Positions 6,283 to 20,025 of a DNA stretch of 34,662 bases are shown piece after piece; the first letter of the stretch is position 1, and each line of letters starts with the position of its first letter. Below the pieces are notes generated by a model. It searched no databases. It saw only the letters and a program-made list of their open reading frames with translations, and was not told where the DNA came from. The stretch lies in the NCBI GenBank assembly GCA_005877185.1, contig VBPQ01000028.1:1-34662 (forward strand). The letters are read 5' to 3'. The translations under genes were made by a program, and so were the position numbers. This DNA is from Nitrososphaerota archaeon. Its GTDB lineage: Archaea > Thermoproteota > Nitrososphaeria > Nitrososphaerales > Gagatemarchaeaceae.

Positions 6283-7845
6283 TCATCCACCCGCGGCGAG
6301 CGAGGAGACGATGTTGAAGAGGGTCCTCGCGTATCTCCTGAACTTATGGTCGACGACGAAAAGAACCCCGAAGTAGAGCACCGCGCCCACAATCACCGTC
6401 AGCGCCAGCCTCAGTCCGTAGGAGACGGTCTCGAGCCCAGCCGGCAGGATTGCAACCCCGAAATAGCGTACCGCGATCGCCATCACGATTCCGGAGACGA
6501 CGTACAGGGGGAGCGAGGGCGAGAGGTACAGTCTGGCCTTCCCGCTGAGCCTCCTCGCCTTCACGGCCACAAGGACGCATGATAGGGCGAGCTGTGCTAC
6601 CGCCCAGTAGGCCGCGAACTGGTACGCGGGCGCGTCGCCAGCTGCGACGTAGCTGCCGAGAAGGAAGACGATACCGATGTACACCGCGGAGTAGGTCAAG
6701 TTTGCGATGGGCACGAACATCAGGTCGCTCCTGAGGATGCTCCTGGTCCTCCCCCTCTCCTCGTCGAGGTCGGCCCTCTCTCGACCGGTCAGCGTCTGGT
6801 CGAAGACCGTGGACACGAGCGTTACGATCGCTGAGAGGGAGAGAAACTCGAGAGCCGTGCTGCTTACGACGTAAGCCGGGGAGAGGAGGTACAATATCTG
6901 GGGCGCCAGGGCGATGGCGCCAGCGGCCATCGGGATGGCGAAGAGAAGCGAGAATTCGAGCACCTCACCCATCAGCTTGTCCGAGCGCTCTCTGAGGAGG
7001 AGCGGGTAGAGAGCCACTGAAAGGAAGGTCGAATACGAGACAATCGCGGCGACCTGGAAGGCCGCTTGGTAGTAACCGGCCAAGCTAGTTCCTCCTTGGC
7101 CCACGGACGCGGCGAAGGTGTCTGCGATTCCAAGGACGTAGGTGAGCGTCATCAACCCAGGCACGTACGGGTCCCTGAGCCACTTCCGGCCGAGGGCGAA
7201 GTCCACCCTCTCCGAGCTGACAATCCTCAGCTGGAAGGTGGAGAACGCGGCCTGCACGAAGTAGGAAACGGCGATGGCGATGATCACTCCCTCGATTCTG
7301 AGCTTGAAGACGAAGAGCAACGGGTAGGCTGCGATTAGCTTCGCCGGCTCTGAGACCAAGAGTGAGTAGGCACCGATCGCCGGGTTGTACCCGCCGACCA
7401 AGGCGGAGGTGGCCTGGTTCCAGTACGAAAGAGGGACGAGGATTATCGCGAGAATGAAGGGCCCGATGCTCGAACCGACCTCCGAGTAGCTTGCGAGCGC
7501 GAAAGCCAGGAATATCGCGACTCCGAGCATGCTCGCCAAGAGGTTAAGAACAAGAGTGGTCTTCCCGACGACCTTCCCCCTGGCCACATCCCTCGCCGCC
7601 CAGTATGTGAGGAAGCCTGCGGGATAGCTGGCGAAGACAATGAGGTCGACGATGAACTCCCAGAGCCCGAGTTGCGCGGGCGGCAGCCACCTGGCCACCA
7701 TGACGAGGAAGACGAAACCCGTGGCGGCGCTGACGATTCTAGAGCCGAAGACGATCAGCCCTGTCATCCGAGGCCTCACAGCTGAGCTCAACTCATGCGC
7801 ACCCGCAACCTCAATGAAATCACTGATAAGTGGAGTGCGTTTCAT
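6283..7845 (-). CDS. Polysaccharide/oligosaccharide flippase (MOP/Wzx-like), polytopic membrane protein
   Basis: 520 aa, with about 12-14 hydrophobic segments throughout, located in a glycan cluster. An alternative start is the internal MTGLIVFG (codon 27). Confidence 0.65.
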   Translation of the reverse strand: MKRTPLISDFIEVAGAHELSSAVRPRMTGLIVFGSRIVSAATGFVFLVMVARWLPPAQLGLWEFIVDLIVFASYPAGFLTYWAARDVARGKVVGKTTLVLNLLASMLGVAIFLAFALASYSEVGSSIGPFILAIILVPLSYWNQATSALVGGYNPAIGAYSLLVSEPAKLIAAYPLLFVFKLRIEGVIIAIAVSYFVQAAFSTFQLRIVSSERVDFALGRKWLRDPYVPGLMTLTYVLGIADTFAASVGQGGTSLAGYYQAAFQVAAIVSYSTFLSVALYPLLLRERSDKLMGEVLEFSLLFAIPMAAGAIALAPQILYLLSPAYVVSSTALEFLSLSAIVTLVSTVFDQTLTGRERADLDEERGRTRSILRSDLMFVPIANLTYSAVYIGIVFLLGSYVAAGDAPAYQFAAYWAVAQLALSCVLVAVKARRLSGKARLYLSPSLPLYVVSGIVMAIAVRYFGVAILPAGLETVSYGLRLALTVIVGAVLYFGVLFVVDHKFRRYARTLFNIVSSLAAGG

Positions 7846-7862
7846 TCACGGCACGGCAAAGA

Positions 7863-7876
7863 TTAATATCGCTGGC
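7863..7876 (+). promoter_or_regulatory. TATA-box-containing promoter motif TTAATATCGCTGGC upstream of rpoE'
   Basis: An AT-rich octamer in a GC-rich 59-bp divergent intergenic region, 42 nt upstream of ATG 7905. An identical 14-mer recurs at 9224..9237. Confidence 0.5.
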
Positions 7877-7904
7877 ACAAAGTGAGGGCCGTTCCCGAAG
7901 CGTT

Positions 7905-8486
7905 ATGTTTGAACTTGTGAGTCTAGCGGATGTTGTAAGGGTCCCTCCGGACAAGTTCGGGTCGCCTCTCGAGGACGTATCGCTCGACCTCCTGAAGCTC
8001 AAGTACGAAAGCACGATCAACCCCGAACACGGATATCTCATCCTTGTGACGAAGGTGGAAGTCGACCGGGTCGGGAAGATAATAGCGGGAGATGGCGCGA
8101 CTTACCATAAGGTAAGGTTCGAAGTACTGACCTTCTATCCTCTGAAGCAGGAGCTCGTGGAGGGTGAGATAGTCGAGGTGACCGACTTCGGGGCCTTCGT
8201 CAGGATAGGGCCGGCGGACGCACTTCTCCACCTAAGCCAGATAATGGACGACTATCTCACGAGCGACGTGAAGTCCGGGATCATCACCGCTTCGCAGAGC
8301 AAGAGGACACTGAGGGTCGGCTCGAAGGTGAGAGTGAGGATAACCGCCGTCAGCCTGGGACACGGCATCTCGATGGGGAAGATAGGGGTGACGTGCAGGC
8401 AGCCTTACCTGGGCGCGCTCGAATGGATCGAAGACGATATAGCGAAGGCGCAGAAGACGGCGAAGGCTGAGGCCAGGGCCGTCTAG
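7905..8486 (+). CDS. rpoE: DNA-directed RNA polymerase subunit E' (Rpo7)
   Basis: MFELVSLADVVRVPPDKFG N-terminus plus a C-terminal S1-like domain (VEGEIVEVTDFGAFVRIGP). The start is moved from track position 7830 to ATG 7905, because the upstream 25 codons overlap the flippase start and the promoter. Confidence 0.9.
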   Translation: MFELVSLADVVRVPPDKFGSPLEDVSLDLLKLKYESTINPEHGYLILVTKVEVDRVGKIIAGDGATYHKVRFEVLTFYPLKQELVEGEIVEVTDFGAFVRIGPADALLHLSQIMDDYLTSDVKSGIITASQSKRTLRVGSKVRVRITAVSLGHGISMGKIGVTCRQPYLGALEWIEDDIAKAQKTAKAEARAV

Positions 8487-9592: not shown

Positions 9593-9880
9593 GTGTCGAA
9601 GCAGCAGCCAGCTCCCGCCCCCCCTCCGGCCAAGACGCCGGTCCCGGCCCCAGCTGCGCCGCCTCCCGCTGGGACGGAGGAGAAGAAACCAGAAAAGAAG
9701 GAGAAGCCGAAGGCACCCAAGAGGCGGATTCAGGTCTGGAAGCTTTACAAGCTCGAGGGTGAAAAGGCGACGCGCCTCAGGCGGGAGTGCCCTAGGTGCG
9801 GGAGAGGCTATTTCATGGCGGAACACAAGAACAGGCTCTCCTGCGGCAACTGCGGCTACACCATGTACACGAAGTCCTAG
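9593..9880 (+). CDS. rps27ae: 30S ribosomal protein S27ae with a P/A/K-rich N-terminal extension
   Basis: C-terminal Zn ribbon CPRCGRGYFMAEHKNRLSCGNCGYT. GTG 9593 is the only ATG/GTG/TTG in frame upstream of the conserved core. Confidence 0.88.
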   Translation: MSKQQPAPAPPPAKTPVPAPAAPPPAGTEEKKPEKKEKPKAPKRRIQVWKLYKLEGEKATRLRRECPRCGRGYFMAEHKNRLSCGNCGYTMYTKS

Positions 9881-11511
9881 GAGTACTCGCGCAGAAGGTT
9901 CCTGATCAAGAGTGTCATGCTCGGGGCCAGGAAGGGTTGAAAGGGAGCGACGTACCTCAGCTTTCTCGCGGTCGCGATCGCTTTGCTCCCGTTCTCATTC
10001 CTGTAGGCCTCGAGGAACGTTCTTGCGACGCGCTCCATCCCTTCAGCCCTGAGGGATAGCTTGGCGGTGTAGTAGAGAAACTCCGCGATGTCCCAGGCGG
10101 CCTCCCCACTCTCCACGGCCTGCTCGAGGTCGGTCAAGAAGACTTCGCCTCCGCGGATGATCACGTTGGATGCCTTCGTGTCGCCGAGGGTGAAGCCGCC
10201 CCTGTGGATCTTGGCGATGGCTTCCGCATAGCTCTTGATGAAGGTGGCGTCGTCCGACCATCCTCTAAGGAGTCTGTGGATTACCCTCGAGAGAGGCTCC
10301 CCCTCGACGTACTCCTTTACGAGTATCCTCTCGTCGGGAGCTACCCCGATGACCCGAGGTGTCTTCACCCCCAGCTCCCTCAGCCTTCGCGAGGCGTGGT
10401 ACTCCCGGTGCAGCCTCGAGAGTGGGGAGAGGCTGAACTTTCTCGCACTCAGGGCCCATATTCCGAGGAGGGCCCACTTCAGGGAGCGGACGTCGGAGAA
10501 GTGCTTGACCAGGATTTTGGTCTCCCTGCTCCCCTCCGATAGGGTCACGATTCGCGCGGTGGCGGAGAGGTCCCCCGCCTGGCGCTCCTTGACTTTGAAG
10601 CCGTCGTTCATCCCGCTCAGCTTCGCCACCCCATCGTAGACGCTCGAGCCGTCTTCGAAGAGGGCGCCGTCATCCAACTTAAGGAGGCTCCTCGGCCGCT
10701 CGAGTTCTCGCGGGAGTTCAGGCCTCTCCCTCATCCTCTTGAGCTTGGAGAGCGCCTCCTTCTTGAAGACACCGAGCCCGACCCTCCCCGCGTAGCCGTG
10801 GACCGCGTACTGAGTCACGCCCCTCGTCGTCATCGAGAAGAGCGAGAGTGCCTTCGAGAAGGCGTCTCCCTTCAGCTTCTCCGAGCTGATCCTGATCGAG
10901 CTGTCGTCTATCGAGAGGTAGCTTCGGGACCCGACCCAATGGGCGGCCTCCCTGAACCCCCTGACGGCGAACTCTCTGTTCTCCTCTCCGCTCTTCCCTG
11001 AGTACGTCTGCGCATAGCTGTAGAGGGCGGGGGGATAGACGAAGGCCCTCTTGCGGAGCTTGTCGAAGAGGAAGTAGTCGTACGGAACGGCGAGGTCCTG
11101 ACTGAACTCCCCGTAGTCGGAGGCGAGCTCGTAGAGCTCCTCCGAGATCACGCGCCTCTTGTACTGGATCTCGAGGTGTTCGAGGAACTCCGCCCCGGCG
11201 ATCGGCTCGTAGATGTTGAGAAGCCTCCCGATGACGAACTCCCCCAGCGCCGCCTCCCTCGCGTCGCCCATGAGCAGCTCTTCGTCGACGATCAGCGCGG
11301 AGGCCGGAACCGCCGCCTCCAGGTACCTGTACCTGACACCGCCGCGGAAATTCTTGACGACGATGATCACGTCGTAGTCGGAGTCCTCCCTCGCGTAGCC
11401 GGCGACAGTCGAGCCGTAGGCACAGACGGCCTCGACCTTCCTGGGCTCGACGAGGAGATTCGCGACGGTACGCAGAGCCTCCCTCTCCTCCGAGCTTAGC
11501 CTCGCCTTCAA
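9877..11511 (-). CDS. Fusion protein: N-terminal Pol-beta-type nucleotidyltransferase domain plus C-terminal RIO/Bud32-like atypical protein kinase domain
   Basis: N-terminus has AYGSTVAGYAREDSDYDVIIVV (GS...DxD minimal NTase signature) and GEFVIGRLLNIYEPI. C-terminus has ILVKHF (Lys), hinge LVKEYVEGEPL, catalytic loop LGDTKASNVII and metal-binding FLTDLEQAV. The TTG start overlaps the upstream stop (TTGA). Confidence 0.6.
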   Translation of the reverse strand: MKARLSSEEREALRTVANLLVEPRKVEAVCAYGSTVAGYAREDSDYDVIIVVKNFRGGVRYRYLEAAVPASALIVDEELLMGDAREAALGEFVIGRLLNIYEPIAGAEFLEHLEIQYKRRVISEELYELASDYGEFSQDLAVPYDYFLFDKLRKRAFVYPPALYSYAQTYSGKSGEENREFAVRGFREAAHWVGSRSYLSIDDSSIRISSEKLKGDAFSKALSLFSMTTRGVTQYAVHGYAGRVGLGVFKKEALSKLKRMRERPELPRELERPRSLLKLDDGALFEDGSSVYDGVAKLSGMNDGFKVKERQAGDLSATARIVTLSEGSRETKILVKHFSDVRSLKWALLGIWALSARKFSLSPLSRLHREYHASRRLRELGVKTPRVIGVAPDERILVKEYVEGEPLSRVIHRLLRGWSDDATFIKSYAEAIAKIHRGGFTLGDTKASNVIIRGGEVFLTDLEQAVESGEAAWDIAEFLYYTAKLSLRAEGMERVARTFLEAYRNENGSKAIATARKLRYVAPFQPFLAPSMTLLIRNLLREYS

Positions 11512-12203
11512 CTCCTCACCTTCTCTTCGAGGGAACTTATTCTGGCGATGACCCCGGGGTCGAAGCTGCTCGAGAGGACTGAGCCCATCCCGAGTCGGAC
11601 GACATTCTCTTCGGGCGCGACCATCCTGACCGGGAGGCCCTTACCAATCCACCTCTTCTCGACGAGCGCGTTCAGCTTGTCGTCGACGAGACCTAGGGGG
11701 AACTTCCGTTCGACCAGTTTGATGAGTGCCCTGTCCTTGAAGATCGACTTCATTTTCACCGTCCTCTCCGTGTCGGCGAAGCTGGACTCGAAGAGGGTTG
11801 CGGCCCTCTCGTCGCTCACCACGCTCATCCTGCTCAGCTTCCTTACGAGGTCGAGATAGTGAGTGAACTCGTGGCCGGCGACTGCCTCAAGAGTCCCCTT
11901 CGCGCCAAAGGCGACGAGTGCCGCCGTGAACTGAACGAGGATCGAGAGGCCACCCGCCCCCGCAGCCGCGACCGTGGGGATGACCCTGGCGTATAGGACA
12001 CCGAGCTGCCCCGCCTCGCCGCGACTCTGGGCAAGGGGGAGGACCGGCTCGACGTAGTACGGCGGGTACGAGAGCTCGCTCGCCTTCTCGACGCGCTTGA
12101 CTGCACCGACCAGATACTTCGCCCTCCCTCTGACCCGCTTCGCGATCGCCTTGGGAATCTTCCCCTCGGTTTCCGCTCTGTCGAGTGCGAAGAGAGGATT
12201 CAC
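11508..12203 (-). CDS. Hypothetical protein with HExxH motif (putative zinc metallopeptidase-like)
   Basis: HEFTH lies in AVAGHEFTHYLDL, directly after a hydrophobic stretch VIPTVAAAGAGGLSILVQFTAALVAFGA. No family was recognised. It is translationally coupled to the downstream NTase-kinase gene. Confidence 0.45.
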   Translation of the reverse strand: MNPLFALDRAETEGKIPKAIAKRVRGRAKYLVGAVKRVEKASELSYPPYYVEPVLPLAQSRGEAGQLGVLYARVIPTVAAAGAGGLSILVQFTAALVAFGAKGTLEAVAGHEFTHYLDLVRKLSRMSVVSDERAATLFESSFADTERTVKMKSIFKDRALIKLVERKFPLGLVDDKLNALVEKRWIGKGLPVRMVAPEENVVRLGMGSVLSSSFDPGVIARISSLEEKVRS

Positions 12204-12248
12204 GATTTCGAGACGAATCTGGAGCTATTATAATTCTTCGAGGGGAGA

Positions 12249-12707
12249 CTAATCCTGAAGTCTGTACTTGACGATGGGAGTCCTTCGCGCGACCTCCATG
12301 AAGACCTCCGCGTGTTGGACTCCAGGTATCTTCCCGATTATGTCATAGACCGCCTTGTGCAGCTCGTCGAGGGATGCGCCCCTGAGGTTAACGATGAGGT
12401 CGAACCTCCCCGTGACTTCGCGCAAGAGCCTCACAGAGTCCATCTTCATGATCTCGTCGAGAATCTGCTCCCTGTTCTTGGGGTCGAGGTTGATTCCTGC
12501 GATGGCTGATGCGGTCATGCCCAGCTTGTCTTCGTTGACGGTGATGGTGTAGTGCTCGATTATCCCCCTCCGGATCAGCCTCTTTATCCTGCTGTAGGCG
12601 ACAGAGAGGTTGATGCCGAGGTCATTGCTGAGTTTCGGTATCGAGATAGAAGCGTCCCTGTTGAGGGCAGAGAGTATTTTCATATCAATTTCGTCAAGTT
12701 TAGCCAT
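12249..12707 (-). CDS. Lrp/AsnC family transcriptional regulator
   Basis: LDEIDMKILSALNRDASISIPKLSNDLGINLSVAYSRIKRL HTH plus a C-terminal RAM/ACT-like domain. Length 152 aa. Confidence 0.88.
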   Translation of the reverse strand: MAKLDEIDMKILSALNRDASISIPKLSNDLGINLSVAYSRIKRLIRRGIIEHYTITVNEDKLGMTASAIAGINLDPKNREQILDEIMKMDSVRLLREVTGRFDLIVNLRGASLDELHKAVYDIIGKIPGVQHAEVFMEVARRTPIVKYRLQD

Positions 12708-13034
12708 TTATATAGCCGCACTTACGCGAATTTTGCAATTTCTCGTATATGAGGCTTTCCTTCCCTTTTTCCCCTTCTCTCGAAGCCCTCCGCGCCTCCC
12801 GCGAGGCTGGAAGTTGAGTCGTCTCACGGGTCTAGGAAATGATAACTCGATGGTTAGCGGTCCCAACTCGACTGGTGTACGCAAGAACTTCTTCCCGAGG
12901 GTTCGGAATGACGAATCCACTCTGGTTTTCGTGCGTTGAAGAGGGGTCGATTTGCCAATCTTCTTGTCAGTCGATAATTGGCCTCCGGCTGCCAGAGGCT
13001 TGCACGAGTGGATCCGAGTAGACCGCTACAGCAC

Positions 13035-13058
13035 AAAAGGGAGTGCAACCCGAAGGGT
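13035..13058 (-). terminator. Possible terminator of the secreted-protein gene (small hairpin followed by a T-run)
   Basis: On the minus strand, ACCC-UUC-GGGU (plus 13048..13058) is followed about 9 nt later by TTTT (plus 13035..13038), roughly 20-45 nt past the stop. This is a weak signal. Confidence 0.25.
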
Positions 13059-13078
13059 AACACACTTCTCGAGTGGAA

Positions 13079-13795
13079 TTACGGTAGGACGAGGTAGACT
13101 GCGGTGAGGCTGATCGTTGTGGTAGTAGTCGGGACAGTCAGATCGTGGAATCTGGCTATGTCCAGAGGGCCGTCGCTCCAGTGAGCGAAATACGCGTTTC
13201 CGTAATCAGCGACTGCGACTTGGTACTCCTGGCCATTGGTAACGAAGAACGTGCACGGAGAGAAACACTCGTCAACCATCACACAGTTTTGCCACTGTGT
13301 TTGGTCTTGGCAATTCTGCCATAGCGTCGTGTAGTAACCGCTTATTTCTCCGAATGAATCAACAGTACCCACCGAGATTTGCGAGTCGCCCGCCGGAATT
13401 GCAGTGATGTCGGCATACACTGCAGTTATTGCCTGGTCCGTTGTTATCATTCCCGTATCCCTGTATCTGTCTGTGCCACCGTCGGACCACCGGACGAACT
13501 GAAAAGTCCCGTAGTCGTCGACAAGAACTGTGTAAGTCTGTCCAACGGTGACGGTGAATGAGACTGGAGTAAAGCCCGTATCCACAATATTGCCGCCCGA
13601 ATCGAAGAGAACTGTGTAGTAGCCTGTGATGGTACTTCCACTCGTGTCTTCGCTAGTGACAGTCAACGTAGATGTTACCGCGGTCGCATGAGCACTCCTC
13701 AGGAGAGGCACGAACGCCAGCAGAGAGGATACCACGAGGAGCTTGATAAAAGAGGCGAGTCCTAGTCCACGCCTGCAAGCGTTGCCTATTTTCAC
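13079..13795 (-). CDS. Secreted/anchored protein with two tandem ~90-aa repeat domains, function unknown
   Basis: N-terminal signal/anchor (LGLASFIKLLVVSSLLAFVPLL). Internal repeat: GYYTVLFDSGG...FTVTVGQTYTVLVDDYGTFQFVRWSDGG...AITAVY versus GYYTTLWQN...FFVTNGQEYQVAVADYGNAYFAHWSDGP...SLTAVY. The second copy carries a 4-Cys insert. GC is lower than its surroundings. GTG start. Confidence 0.6.
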   Translation of the reverse strand: MKIGNACRRGLGLASFIKLLVVSSLLAFVPLLRSAHATAVTSTLTVTSEDTSGSTITGYYTVLFDSGGNIVDTGFTPVSFTVTVGQTYTVLVDDYGTFQFVRWSDGGTDRYRDTGMITTDQAITAVYADITAIPAGDSQISVGTVDSFGEISGYYTTLWQNCQDQTQWQNCVMVDECFSPCTFFVTNGQEYQVAVADYGNAYFAHWSDGPLDIARFHDLTVPTTTTTISLTAVYLVLP

Positions 13796-13813
13796 GAATC
13801 CTCCATACTTCTT

Positions 13814-13821
13814 AGATATAA
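13814..13821 (-). promoter_or_regulatory. TATA-like box (TTATATCT on the minus strand) for the secreted-protein gene
   Basis: Lies about 18-26 nt upstream of GTG 13795 in an AT-rich intergenic region, which would imply a leaderless or near-leaderless mRNA. Confidence 0.35.
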
Positions 13822-13872
13822 GTCGGTTACGTCACTATCGCATCTAACAATCTACAATAAAAGACAAATCTA

Positions 13873-13893
13873 GGATTTTGACGGGATTTTGAC
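13873..13893. repeat. Tandem 10-mer GGATTTTGAC x2 (11-bp period)
   Basis: GGATTTTGAC-G-GGATTTTGAC was read directly. It lies about 80-100 nt upstream of the secreted-protein start and is a possible regulator binding site. Confidence 0.6.
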
Positions 13894-13956
13894 TTCAGAC
13901 CTAGAAGAATAAGTTAGCGAAAGAATCTCGGATGAGAGGTGTGAAGTTCGACCCTA

Positions 13957-16913: not shown

Positions 16914-18185
16914 ATGGAAGAAATACTCGACGAATGGAATGACAAGCTTGTTGAGCACATTCTCAAGCACGGAGACGACCTCAGCTTCACGAAGTTCTTC
17001 TGGAAAGAATGCGAGGCGAACGAAAAGGAGCATGCGCAGTTCGCGCGATTCAGCAGAGCAATCTACTTGTCCCACGGTGGTATGTCGAACGCCAAAGTCG
17101 CGAGAGCGTTGGATACGGGCTATTCAACAGTCTGGACGTGGCTGAAGCTTAGTCGGTTGCCGAAGCTAGGGCATTACCTGAAAGTCTTTCTCGCGCTCGG
17201 GAAGCCGCATGAAAGGCGGGTTTGGCTCAGCGTGAATAATTCCCCAGGCCACGCGGTGCCATTGGGGCCGTACGTGGAAGTTCCCACCGAGATACGTGCG
17301 TGGGAAGATATCGAGCCTCTCTTAACTCAACTCCAGCCTATCGCAGTAATTACTGATGGACTGTCAAGGGCGTACCTCTTTGGTTTCCTCCTGGGGATGG
17401 TAATCGGAGATGCTGCCAAGCCGAGGCAAGAAGAGTGGCACAGACACCTGAACCTGACTCTCAGTGAGAAATATTCCACTAACTGGAACTTGGGCGAGTT
17501 CACCTGCCTATGTGCCGCGAGCGCAGGACTAAGGATGGAACGCGCCACAGACTTGCCACGAAGTCATGATAAGCCTCATGGGTTCTATTGTTGGACGTCC
17601 CAATCGTCGGCTTTGATCGATTGGATTTACAACGTCTGTCTGGGTCTTACGGATGAAGAACTTACGACGTATGATGCGGTGAGAATGAATTGGGGGCTGA
17701 CGGGACCGGATGATTTCAGAAGAGGACTAATTCAGGGCCTGGCCGAATCAGACGGGTCGGTCAACATAGCGAGTCAAGCAGTAGAATTCTGGATCGGTCC
17801 CAACTGGGAGTTCGGCGCGAGGCTATTGGAAAGCTTCGGCTTGCATTCCTTTAGAAGCCGAGAAGCGCTCTGCGTCTCGAAGACCCAGGTAGTGAAGTCA
17901 CTGGAAGTCCCTTTGTTCTCCCCACTCTTGAAGACAGTGCGGTACACCCGGTATGAGAAACTGGCCAGTGCGAAACGAATGGCCAGGGGCGGCAGTCGTC
18001 TCCCTGATGGAGTGCGAAACACAATAACGAGACTGAAGGCCCAGGGACTTTCAGTCAGCGAGGTTTCAGAGAAGATCATTGACGCTTACGGAATAAGCGT
18101 GTCCTTCGAAGCGCTCAAGAGGTGGGCGGGGAGACACGGAGGGAGAAAAGCCGCTTTAGATGGTGGCGCTGAGAACGTTGGCTAG
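16914..18185 (+). CDS. Free-standing double-motif LAGLIDADG homing-endonuclease-like protein with N- and C-terminal HTH segments
   Basis: Motif 1 is [17 protein letters not shown] and motif 2 is [15 protein letters not shown], about 115 aa apart, and both keep the acidic residue. HTH-like segments are [23 protein letters not shown] and [29 protein letters not shown] was about 47% on the two lines counted versus about 65% in infB. It is on the opposite strand to the flanking ribosomal operon. Confidence 0.65.
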
Positions 18186-18869: not shown

Positions 18870-19996
18870 GGCTCTGTAGAAACCCTCTTCTCAGAAATTC
18901 GGTCTGACTGAGGTCCTATTCGTAGAACGCTCAAGATTCTTTCAGATGGCACGTTTTGCCATCGTCCGCTGGCTCAACACCCCTGGTTGGAATGACAGGG
19001 AAGAAGAACCGGAAGGACGATGACGAACAGAAGAGACGGGAGAGCAGGTACATAAGGATGGTCAGGGCAGTCTTCAAGGTCTGTCAGAGGCAGTGCATCC
19101 CGCTCTACTCCAGCAAGTTCTCTAGGAAGGATTACACACTCTGGCAGCACATCGCCCTCCTCGTCCTATGGCAGAGGATTAGGAAGTCGTACAGGGAGTA
19201 CGTGGACGACTTCCTCACGGTGGCAGACAGGCTCGTCGCAGCCCTCGGCTTGGCCAAGCTTCCACACTTCACCACGATAGAGAAGTTCGTCCTGAGGGTC
19301 CCGTCGACACTCCTCGAGAGGGTGATGGGAGGGTTCGTCCTCCTGACCAGGATCAGGGGGCAGGTCTTCTCCCCAGACTCCTCCGGGTTCTCACCCAATC
19401 ACGTCTCCAGATACTATGCCCTCAGAATCAAGAGGGACGTCCTCTCGTCGATGAAGAGGCAGGTGAGGCAGAAGGAGAGGTGCGAGAGGAGATGACGAAG
19501 AGAAGGACGAGGCGCTTCCTGAAGCTGACCATCGGTGTGGAGCTGAGGACCCAGCTTGTCACCTCGATCAAGCTCAGGAGAGGCCCTGCCAATGACAACA
19601 GGGATTTCGAGCCCGTGGTGAGGAAGGGTCACTCGGTCAAGCCAATCAAGGTCGGCATCGGGGACAAGGGCTACGACGACGAGGACAACCACGAGCTCCT
19701 GAGGGACGAGCTCGGTGCGATGTCCATAATCCCTGCGAGGTATGAGAACGTCCCCATCTGGAGGACGAGGGGGCGCTACAGGAAGGAGATGAAGAGAGGA
19801 TACTCGAAGAAGACGTACCACCAGAGGTCCAAGGACGAGACGGTCTTCTCCGTTGCGAAGAGGACCATGGGGGAAGAGGTGAGGTCTGTCAGGGTGAAGG
19901 CGCAGAACAATGAGATGAGGTTCAGGGTGATAGCCTACAATGCGTCAAGGACAGTGAGCCTGGCCTATTCTTTAGTCAGAGGGTTTCTACAGAGCC
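18870..19996 (+). mobile_element. Insertion sequence, IS4/IS5-superfamily DDE type (IS5-family, ISH1-like by size and 8-bp duplication)
   Basis: Perfect 19-bp terminal inverted repeats: GGCTCTGTAGAAACCCTCT (18870..18888) and AGAGGGTTTCTACAGAGCC (19978..19996). Flanking 8-bp direct repeat CGGTCAGC (18862..18869 and 19997..20004). Length 1127 bp. It encodes a DDE transposase split into two frames. Confidence 0.88.
18956..19495 (+). CDS. IS transposase, N-terminal part (frame 2)
   Basis: Contains the first catalytic-Asp region SPDSSGFSPNHVSRYY (the D(S/A)(S/T)GF pattern of IS4/IS5 DDE transposases). The true start may be ATG 18992 (MTGKKNRK). Confidence 0.7.
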   Translation: MPSSAGSTPLVGMTGKKNRKDDDEQKRRESRYIRMVRAVFKVCQRQCIPLYSSKFSRKDYTLWQHIALLVLWQRIRKSYREYVDDFLTVADRLVAALGLAKLPHFTTIEKFVLRVPSTLLERVMGGFVLLTRIRGQVFSPDSSGFSPNHVSRYYALRIKRDVLSSMKRQVRQKERCERR

Positions 19997-20025
19997 CGGT
20001 CAGCAACCGGCCTCTATTATCCTGA
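19480..20025 (+). CDS. IS transposase, C-terminal part (frame 1, -1 relative to the N-terminal part)
   Basis: RRFLKLTIGVE..., second Asp GIGDKGYDDEDN, and Glu region YHQRSKDETVFSVAKRTMG. The ORF runs through the right IR and stops 29 nt outside the element. No slippery heptamer is visible in the 16-nt overlap. Confidence 0.7.
   Translation: MREEMTKRRTRRFLKLTIGVELRTQLVTSIKLRRGPANDNRDFEPVVRKGHSVKPIKVGIGDKGYDDEDNHELLRDELGAMSIIPARYENVPIWRTRGRYRKEMKRGYSKKTYHQRSKDETVFSVAKRTMGEEVRSVRVKAQNNEMRFRVIAYNASRTVSLAYSLVRGFLQSPVSNRPLLS

Follow-up and report, generated by a model that had tools for sequence, protein, structure and literature searches.

The locus and its genes

The stretch of DNA considered here (the window) comprises positions 1 to 34,662 of contig VBPQ01000028.1, from a Nitrososphaerota archaeon of the Gagatemarchaeaceae (assembly GCA_005877185.1). 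On its minus strand it carries two adjoining genes: one for a 231-amino acid (aa) protein with an HExxH motif and, directly downstream, one for a 544-aa protein in which a nucleotidyltransferase (NTase) domain, a helical domain and a Bud32-like kinase domain are fused (Table 1). The TGA stop codon of the HExxH gene and the TTG start codon of the fusion gene have 4 nucleotides (nt) in common (GTTGA), which indicates translational coupling. An original prediction, made by reading the letters without database searches, had described a two-gene, translationally coupled operon with a TTG start overlapping the TGA of the 231-aa gene. The overlap is plain in the sequence, and the operon is borne out by related loci, 74 of the 77 measured having overlapping genes as well. 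All the motifs quoted in that prediction are present where it placed them.

The fusion gene is convergent to the gene for the ribosomal protein S27ae, also as predicted, and the two stop codons overlap by 4 nt, so that there is no space for separate terminators. The same 4-nt overlap is found in a related locus (L003), and in another (L085) the overlap is 17 nt. The S27ae open reading frame (ORF) encodes 95 aa, including an N-terminal, low-complexity extension of about 45 aa rich in Pro, Ala and Lys that lies outside the Pfam domain (residues 48–90). On the other side of the gene pair, a TATA-like box, TTATAATA, is located just past the stop of a gene for an Lrp/AsnC-family regulator. Rfam and tRNA scans of the window gave no matches.

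Table 1. Coordinates of the gene pair, of the domains it encodes and of its immediate surroundings in the window.
Feature	Residues	Nucleotides	Strand	Remarks	Basis
S27ae gene		9593–9880	plus	convergent context, outside operon	Pfam Ribosomal_S27
544-aa NTase / helical domain / Bud32-like kinase fusion gene		9877–11511	minus	TTG start	ORF, homologs
Minimal protein-kinase domain, Bud32/RIO class	301–544	9880–10611	minus		HMMs, Foldseek, profile, conservation
Middle domain, mostly helical	106–300	10612–11196	minus		predicted secondary structure, conservation
NTase core, Pol-beta type, MNT/ANT class	1–105	11197–11511	minus	G33, S34, D45, D47	Pfam, profile
Stop/start overlap of HExxH and fusion genes		11508–11511	minus	4 nt	sequence
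231-aa orphan HExxH protein gene		11508–12203	minus	GTG start	ORF, homologs
HEFTH motif (H111, E112, H115)	111–115	11859–11873	minus		sequence, conservation
TATA-like box TTATAATA		12226–12233	minus	ends 22 nt 5' of GTG start	sequence
Lrp/AsnC-family regulator gene		12249–12707	minus	45 nt upstream of HExxH gene	Pfam HTH_24, AsnC_trans_reg

Distribution of the family

Protein searches, with the best 120 matches listed per search, gave 640 homologous clusters at 90% identity for the fusion protein (about 541 aa) and 563 for the HExxH protein (about 228 aa), nearly all of them full length. Among the matches listed, the taxon names given for both proteins are all Nitrososphaerales or Thaumarchaeota, and the closest genomes are the soil Thaumarchaeota assemblies TA_8 and TA_13 (97% and 96% identity). 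Because the homologous clusters are so many and nearly all full length, and because catalytic residues are invariant among them, both ORFs are real genes and not chance. An exhaustive search of 50%-identity representatives with the fusion protein found 152 clusters at E ≤ 1e-30, mostly full length (530–570 aa), and a distant-member profile added 786 further clusters of about 560 aa; the taxon names in this distant clade are, again among the matches listed, all Bathyarchaeia or Bathyarchaeota. Since full-length fusions are found in both groups, their sequences indicate that the fusion already existed when Nitrososphaeria and the sister group that includes Bathyarchaeia parted. The HExxH protein is confined to the Nitrososphaeria main clade. 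Members of the family are found in soil and sediment archaea.

In public annotation, many members carry the JGI name 'Bud32/predicted nucleotidyltransferase'. Other automatic names are 'nucleotidyltransferase domain-containing protein' and, for some distant members, 'lipopolysaccharide kinase InaA family'. A literature search found no paper joining Bud32 with a nucleotidyltransferase domain in archaea, and within the literature searched the earlier view that the architecture is not a described one stands. That view was to be given up if the family turned out to be widespread and already characterised; it is widespread, in Nitrososphaeria and Bathyarchaeia, but not characterised. The fusion and its partner are a large uncharacterised family, with a new architecture made from known kinds of domain and an orphan partner.

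Conservation of the genomic context

The surroundings of the gene pair were compared in 91 fetched loci, with flanks of at most 10 kb on either side. In 80 of these the fusion gene is immediately preceded by the HExxH gene, a co-occurrence that the original prediction had proposed checking. Of the 11 loci that deviate, one is a contig end, six belong to a paralogue clade (43–48% identity, with variable context) and four to the distant clade; neither the six paralogue loci nor the four distant ones have a recurrent neighbour. Where the overlap of the two genes could be measured (77 loci), it is the identical 4 nt in 57 and ranges from 1 to 29 nt in 74. S27ae is convergent downstream in 66 loci, in 57 of them at a distance of 300 nt or less, and is the last gene of a Rpo7-Spt4-DUF359-S24e-S27ae cluster. 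This neighbourhood is unchanged down to 35% identity, and the operon is to a large extent shown to be chromosomal, vertically inherited and of housekeeping character. No metabolic genes are consistently linked to the fusion gene in the contexts compared.

Upstream, a gene of the Lrp/AsnC family lies 20–60 nt from the HExxH gene in 54 of 69 loci, and it keeps this position at 35–42% identity despite changed genes farther upstream; its product is possibly the regulator of the operon. Inspection by eye of 69 distinct upstream regions shows an A/T-rich box (AAGAyTCwTAwG or TTATAATA) in most of them, at a constant distance from the start codon. Such a conserved box at a fixed distance suggests that the operon is transcribed from an archaeal promoter of its own, as a leaderless mRNA.

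Several individual loci differ from this picture. One metagenome-assembled genome holds both a main-clade copy and a paralogue of the fusion gene (L023 and L058). In L075 (10001–11621; OY970211.1, a complete-chromosome assembly), the best match to the fusion protein starts only at locus position 10377, so that the first ~125 codons may contain a frameshift or an assembly error. In one member of the distant clade (L087/L088, 8001–11069), the fusion homolog is followed after 7 nt by a 447-aa protein of the metallo-beta-lactamase fold, a candidate hydrolase partner different from the HExxH protein of Nitrososphaeria. In another distant locus (L089, 1413–4940; 24% identity), the fusion homolog starts 7 nt after a gene for a 635-aa fusion of NTP_transferase and CDP-alcohol phosphatidyltransferase domains, which is the domain architecture of inositol-phosphate cytidylyltransferase/DIPP synthase, and a methyltransferase gene lies downstream. 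This arrangement is the sole hint of a link to small molecules or lipid head groups.

The nucleotidyltransferase and helical domains

An AlphaFold2 model of the fusion protein, built from 32 homologs, has a predicted local distance difference test score (pLDDT) of 86 and a predicted template modelling score (pTM) of 0.84. It divides the chain into an alpha/beta NTase core (1–105), a helical part (106–300) and a kinase (301–544). The NTase motif consists of G33-S34, 10 residues and D45-x-D47, inside AYGSTVAGYAREDSDYDVIIVV. Pfam Polbeta matches residues 17–56 with 26.9 bits, equal to its cut-off of 26.9, and NTP_transf_2 matches residues 15–60 with 25.2 bits (cut-off 21). The protein thus has both the marks by which the Pol-beta superfamily is recognised, namely the motif hG[GS]-x9-13-Dh[DE]h and a score at or over the Pfam cut-off (PF18765 / PF01909). 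The NCBIfam model MntA gives 20.7 bits on the fusion protein. A profile of residues 1–300 matches in the PDB only minimal NTases (9xbd, 1wot), HalB and ANT(3'')(9), and in a Foldseek search of the whole model against the PDB, ANT(4') appears at rank 49 with its match in the N-terminal part. The N-terminal Pol-beta NTase proposed in the original prediction is therefore well founded, on the Pfam scores, the invariant motif and the PDB profile matches. A third carboxylate of the core could be D76 or D83.

Conservation was followed at two depths. In 32 close homologs G33, S34, D45, D47 and D83 are all invariant. In a broader sample of 52 family members with 22–59% identity to the window protein, the G-S and D-x-D residues are retained in only 39–47, while D83 is present in all 52 and G90, R120, E124 and P160 are conserved throughout, even where the carboxylates are lost. 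The last three of these lie in the middle domain and are nearly invariant down to relatives at 22% identity. Its motifs are YPPALYSY and RGxxQYAxHGYAGRVG, with LGEFVxGRLL just upstream, and no Pfam or PDB match covers the region (residues 106–300).

This uneven conservation bears on what the NTase domain does. It could be mainly regulatory or a scaffold, e.g. a nucleotide sensor, with the kinase or ATPase as the only chemistry of importance and the HExxH protein as substrate or regulator. The kinase residues are kept in essentially all of the 52 members, more than can be said of the G-S and D-x-D residues, and D83, G90, R120, E124 and P160 stay (nearly) invariant in members without carboxylates. 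In the clade that has the HExxH protein, however, the NTase motif is invariant in 32 of 32 sampled sequences, which argues for an active transferase there, and a mainly regulatory NTase is in our judgement unlikely.

A second question is whether the resemblance to MntA-type minimal NTases (the NCBIfam score and PDB 1wot) points to a toxin-antitoxin or anti-virus defence module, like the type VII systems, where a toxin is neutralised through modification by an MNT-type NTase or a kinase. PADLOC does give matches for the fusion protein, but only generic kinase and NTase ones, and none for its HExxH partner. Across the whole class the locus keeps its place in a core neighbourhood, there is no HEPN partner and no match to a specific defence model, and the gene pair has no mobile-element context. 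We regard a defence role as highly improbable, and a known defence or toxin-antitoxin system was rejected on the missing specific PADLOC match and the fixed core context.

The original prediction had also seen a resemblance to the CDP-DAG synthase family Tam41/Mmp37 in residues 90–104 (GEFVIGRLLNIYEPI), and this did not survive testing. Pfam Mmp37 (PF09139) matches none of the 52 family members, and the N-terminal profile finds no Tam41 chain in the PDB at E ≤ 10. Against a yeast Tam41 sequence, validated as a probe by its match to 6ig2 (E = 2.7e-54), hmmsearch gives –1.8 bits and hhalign a probability of 0.5%. The lone short hhalign alignment is the very G-R-L..P stretch that the original prediction had pointed to. 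The Tam41 structures 6ig2, 6ig4 and 7ecd are not in the best 50 Foldseek matches to the whole model, a list saturated by kinases. The resemblance, as far as the sequences go, is real at the level of the motif and statistically weightless, and a link with Tam41/Mmp37 was rejected on these Pfam, hmmsearch, hhalign and Foldseek results.

The kinase domain

The C-terminal domain has a complete set of kinase motifs: K336 in VKHF, the hinge LVKEYVEGEPL (398–408), GDTKASNVII (443–452) and TDLEQAV (460–466). The key residues are K336, E370, H436, D444-x-K446-x-x-N449, D461-L-E-Q464 and W473-D474. In the broad sample K336, E370, H436 and D474, the Asp of helix alpha-F, are retained in all 52 members, and the remainder nearly so (D444, D461, P/A447 and E463 in 51, K446 and Q464 in 50, N449 in 48). 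The catalytic loop has the form G-D-x-K-P-x-N in 46–50 of the 52. D461 and D474 are just 12 residues apart, which leaves no activation segment; Bud32 and RIO lack one too. The atypical C-terminal kinase that had been predicted is thus present with its catalytic set intact.

Every method used places this domain nearest to Bud32 and its human counterpart PRPK. In NCBIfam, Bud32 models rank on top, led by TIGR03724 with 58.9 bits (E = 4.5e-16), although their cut-offs are far away (125 for TIGR03724; 55.6 vs 188 bits for NF011463; 43.7 vs 447 bits for NF007174). In the PDB, the single sequence finds two Bud32-type kinases best (E ~1e-7), with Rio2 at 0.025, and a 52-sequence profile finds M. jannaschii Bud32 at 1.8e-15, human PRPK at 9e-11, LanKC at 8e-9 and Rio2 at 1e-7. 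Foldseek against the PDB has Bud32/PRPK at the top (8k20_B, 6wqx, 7szc, 3en9, 8up5_B), with TM-scores relative to the target of 0.62–0.76 for stand-alone Bud32/PRPK chains; Rio2/Rio1 and methylthioribose kinase come after. Of the two descriptions that had been offered, 'diverged Bud32 relative' is the best one, by hidden Markov model (HMM), PDB profile and Foldseek alike. 'RIO-like' holds for the D-L-E-Q metal loop only, the domain as a whole being nearer to Bud32 and the catalytic loop being D-x-K-x-x-N. Membership of the RIO family by PF01163 is marginal: Pfam RIO1 matches residues 368–470 with 25.3 bits against a cut-off of 22, a RIO1 match at E ≤ 0.1 is found in 26 of the 52 members, and the NCBIfam Rio1 model gives 22.9 bits against a cut-off of 480.

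There are also weak but recurrent matches to families of small-molecule kinases, Kdo in 32, APH in 29 and ABC1 in 24 of the 52 members, and the Foldseek match to methylthioribose kinase covers about 380 aligned columns. Together with the aminoglycoside adenylyltransferases ANT(3'')(9) and ANT(4') among the solved relatives of the N-terminal part, and with the gene for the NTP_transferase and CDP-alcohol phosphatidyltransferase fusion next to the distant homolog in L089, these matches would fit an enzyme of a small-molecule pathway. In such an enzyme, the kinase would phosphorylate a hydroxyl compound (a sugar, an inositol or lipid head group, a cofactor precursor or an antibiotic-like compound), the NTase would nucleotidylate the same or a related compound, and the HExxH protein would be a metal-dependent hydrolase. 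Analogues are the APH plus ANT aminoglycoside-modifying enzymes and kinase/nucleotidyltransferase activation pairs. APH and choline kinases, however, have the catalytic loop H-x-D-x-x-x-x-N, unlike the D-x-K-x-x-N loop of the fusion, which is the Ser/Thr protein-kinase form. Bud32/PRPK comes out ahead of APH and Kdo in every method, and metabolic genes are not consistently linked to the family. A small-molecule enzyme is for these reasons an improbable explanation, if one worth keeping in mind.

Relation to the Bud32 of KEOPS

With Bud32 as its nearest family in sequence and fold, the fusion protein could be the KEOPS Bud32 of this lineage, i.e. the canonical Bud32, whether stand-alone or fused to Kae1, could have been replaced by an NTase-fused version that serves Kae1 in tRNA t6A synthesis. 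JGI names family members 'Bud32', and the order of domains mimics that of the Kae1-Bud32 fusion MJ1130. Other observations point the other way. The scores are below half of the curated Bud32 cut-offs, and the fusion has Lys in its catalytic loop where the aligned Bud32 sequences have Thr. In Bud32 itself, the short C-terminal tail carries an invariant Arg that contacts G26 of the tRNA and is needed for t6A synthesis (PMC11621456). In the fusion, residues 505–544 are predicted to form four helices rather than such a tail, alignments to Bud32 stop near residues 510–520, and no equivalent Arg could be assigned. Main-clade copy and paralogue also stand together in one genome (L023, L058).

The genomic surroundings tell the same story. 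The original prediction had described the position next to S27ae as a place where many archaea encode Kae1-Bud32; the literature search found no paper pairing Kae1 with S27ae. A probe consisting of M. jannaschii Kae1, validated by 736 bits on MJ1130 chains, found no kae1 by tblastn in 83 loci (flanks of at most 10 kb per side) or in the window, and a kinase-domain search of the same loci and the window found no second kinase. Kae1 and Bud32 orthologs have been reported in all archaea, Thaumarchaea included (PMC2948915), and almost every archaeal genome has the two genes side by side (PMC5007285). Because of this published ubiquity and adjacency, the lack of a kae1 gene nearby and the helical extension predicted at the C-terminus, the sequence evidence makes it much more likely that the kinase domain is a diverged Bud32 paralogue than the KEOPS subunit itself. 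We consider the replacement of the canonical Bud32 very unlikely.

The HExxH protein

The 231-aa protein has no match in Pfam, in NCBIfam or among PDB sequences, either alone or as a 33-sequence profile, in keeping with the earlier remark that it belongs to no recognisable family. Its H111, E112 and H115 are invariant in 33 sequences, as is D144, and E132 and E139 are nearly so. The structure model (pLDDT 80.5) predicts a long N-terminal helix, a four-stranded sheet (49–93), a helix bearing the HExxH motif (102–124) and a C-terminal alpha/beta part; the loop 128–146, which holds the candidate metal ligands E139 and D144, is of low confidence. A 'hydrophobic helix' had been noted before HEFTH. 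The stretch is indeed hydrophobic, but the model predicts a beta-strand and a short helix within a soluble fold instead of a membrane helix.

By the model and the conservation, the HExxH motif lies in a helix that follows a beta-sheet, the arrangement that is characteristic of zincins. Foldseek with the model gives no significant match (best E = 0.33), and zincins appear from E = 0.63 at a probability of at most 0.30; among them are jannalysin, selecase, SPRTN, BepA, BlaR1, aminopeptidase N and MMP-11. We therefore describe the protein as a putative minimal zincin-like metallohydrolase.

A proposed function

Bud32 and RIO are two ancient minimal kinases that act as substrate-gated ATPases on tRNA and on pre-ribosomes, respectively, and not as signalling kinases. 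Against this background, we propose that the operon encodes an ATP/NTP-dependent housekeeping complex that modifies its substrate and has a Bud32 paralogue as its basis. Taking the genes and the mechanism jointly, we hold this proposal tentatively, at somewhat less than an even chance. The HExxH protein and the 544-aa enzyme, both cytoplasmic, would form a complex. The kinase domain would bind ATP, and would either phosphorylate Ser/Thr or work as a substrate-gated ATPase like Bud32 and RIO; it is proposed to be active because the D-x-K-x-x-N loop, the Lys-Glu pair and the metal-binding Asp are intact. The NTase domain would attach a nucleoside monophosphate (NMP) to a hydroxyl on this same macromolecular substrate, either at a protein side chain or at the 3' end of an RNA. 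The HExxH protein would be either a hydrolase that processes this substrate or a target controlled by both modifications. The favoured substrate would be a part of the translation apparatus, by analogy with Bud32 (tRNA) and RIO (pre-40S) and in view of the fixed place of the operon among genes for translation and transcription; this target is a guess.

Several observations weigh against this proposal. The NTase carboxylates are absent in about a quarter of the distant members sampled, so the family as a whole does not depend on NMP transfer. Pfam Kdo and APH match many members (32 and 29 of 52) and Foldseek finds methylthioribose kinase; these small-molecule kinase matches therefore leave room for a non-protein substrate. 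The zincin assignment draws on a motif and on fold matches that are not significant (best E = 0.33). The complex of two proteins would follow from gene overlap and co-occurrence, and the link to translation from neighbourhood and analogy, with neighbours that are convergent and not co-transcribed.

A more specific form of the same idea is a second KEOPS-like machine, in which a Bud32-type ATPase would gate a tethered Pol-beta NTase on tRNA, rRNA or a ribosomal protein, with the HExxH protein as an accessory subunit. We give this version a small chance only. If it is true, Nitrososphaeria and Bathyarchaeia would have an RNA- or protein-modification system of their own that has so far gone unnoticed.

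Nitrososphaeria, to which the ammonia oxidisers belong, and Bathyarchaeia are both abundant classes of archaea. The fusion would be a third conserved branch of the Bud32/RIO group, permanently fused to an NTase and present in these two classes. The separation of the fusion from the true KEOPS Bud32 would improve annotation, where the automatic names are currently wrong, and the HExxH partner adds a possible new family of minimal metallohydrolases.

Other features of the window

Several other features of the window and of the related loci are recorded here. An insertion sequence with perfect 19-nt terminal inverted repeats (18870–18888 and 19978–19996) occupies 18870–19996, between the genes for L7Ae and for Glu/Gln-tRNA synthetase. 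It encloses two overlapping ORFs (18956–19495 and 19480–20025), of which the second has a DDE_Tnp_1 transposase domain, and the transposase is thus probably split by a frameshift. Between the NDK and L7Ae genes, at 16914–18185 (plus strand), lies a 423-aa ORF with HTH_23 as its sole domain match; in L003 this interval contains only the small genes for S28e and L24e. The ORF may be a second mobile or inserted gene.

The GC content falls to 0.50 at 12708–13950, compared with about 0.60 elsewhere. A 238-aa ORF in this region (13079–13795, minus strand) is hydrophobic at its N-terminus and finds no match in Pfam, and relatives have different genes or none in the interval between S6e and Lrp. Another ORF without a Pfam match (520 aa; 6283–7845, minus strand) adjoins the gene for Rpo7. 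At 218 aa, the Rpo7 ORF itself (7830–8486) is longer than the 189–194 aa called in relatives, so the gene probably starts farther downstream. In one related locus (L001, 14413–17589), eIF2-gamma contains an intein (Intein_splicing and LAGLIDADG domains; 1058-aa product), and an intein-free form of 391 aa is found in L003.

Comparison with known systems

The system that the fusion protein resembles most is Bud32, both in its minimal kinase fold without an activation segment and as the closest family by HMM score. The Kae1-Bud32 fusion MJ1130 has the same order of domains, with the kinase at the C-terminal end and its catalytic partner before it, but there the partner is Kae1 with its ASKHA fold, whereas here a Pol-beta NTase takes this place. 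The catalytic loop reads G-D-x-K-x-S-N in the fusion and H-G-D-L-T-T-S-N in Bud32, the metal loop D-L-E-Q compared with D-F-G, and in place of the short Arg-bearing tail of Bud32 the fusion has about 40 additional residues that are predicted to be helical. Bud32 genes usually adjoin kae1 (PMC5007285), while the fusion gene does so in none of the 83 loci. RIO1 and RIO2 have in common with the fusion a Pfam RIO1 score (just over the cut-off here), the Gln in D-x-x-Q, a small size and the lack of an activation loop. Their structures come after Bud32 in the Foldseek list, the profile E-value for Rio2 is 1e-7 compared with 1.8e-15 for Bud32, and the fusion has no counterpart of the N-terminal winged-helix domain of RIO kinases.

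For the N-terminal part, the nearest known systems are MNT/MntA, ANT(3'')(9) and ANT(4'), which have the G-S-x10-D-x-D motif and the Pfam Polbeta and NTP_transf_2 domains in common with the fusion; the ANT enzymes also have the same order of an NTase core followed by a helical domain. The alignment with MNT/ANT enzymes is limited to the first ~60–80 residues, and they have no counterpart of the helical-domain motifs LGEFVxGRLL, YPPALYSY and QYAxHGYAGRVG. The fusion in turn differs in its attached kinase and in having no HEPN partner. Tam41/Mmp37 has the NTase fold and a short G-R-L..P motif after the core in common with it, but is not in the best 50 Foldseek matches, while ANT(4') is.

In the case of the HExxH protein, the comparison is with zincins and in particular with the minigluzincins (projannalysin, selecase), which likewise have an HExxH helix after a beta-sheet and, in the case of the minigluzincins, a small size and an archaeal origin. 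The HExxH protein differs from the minigluzincins in its additional long N-terminal helix and a C-terminal domain of about 90 aa, and from zincins at large in giving no significant sequence or fold match, its metal binding being putative. Its conserved acidic residues E139 and D144, 24–29 residues past the motif, could provide the third metal ligand.

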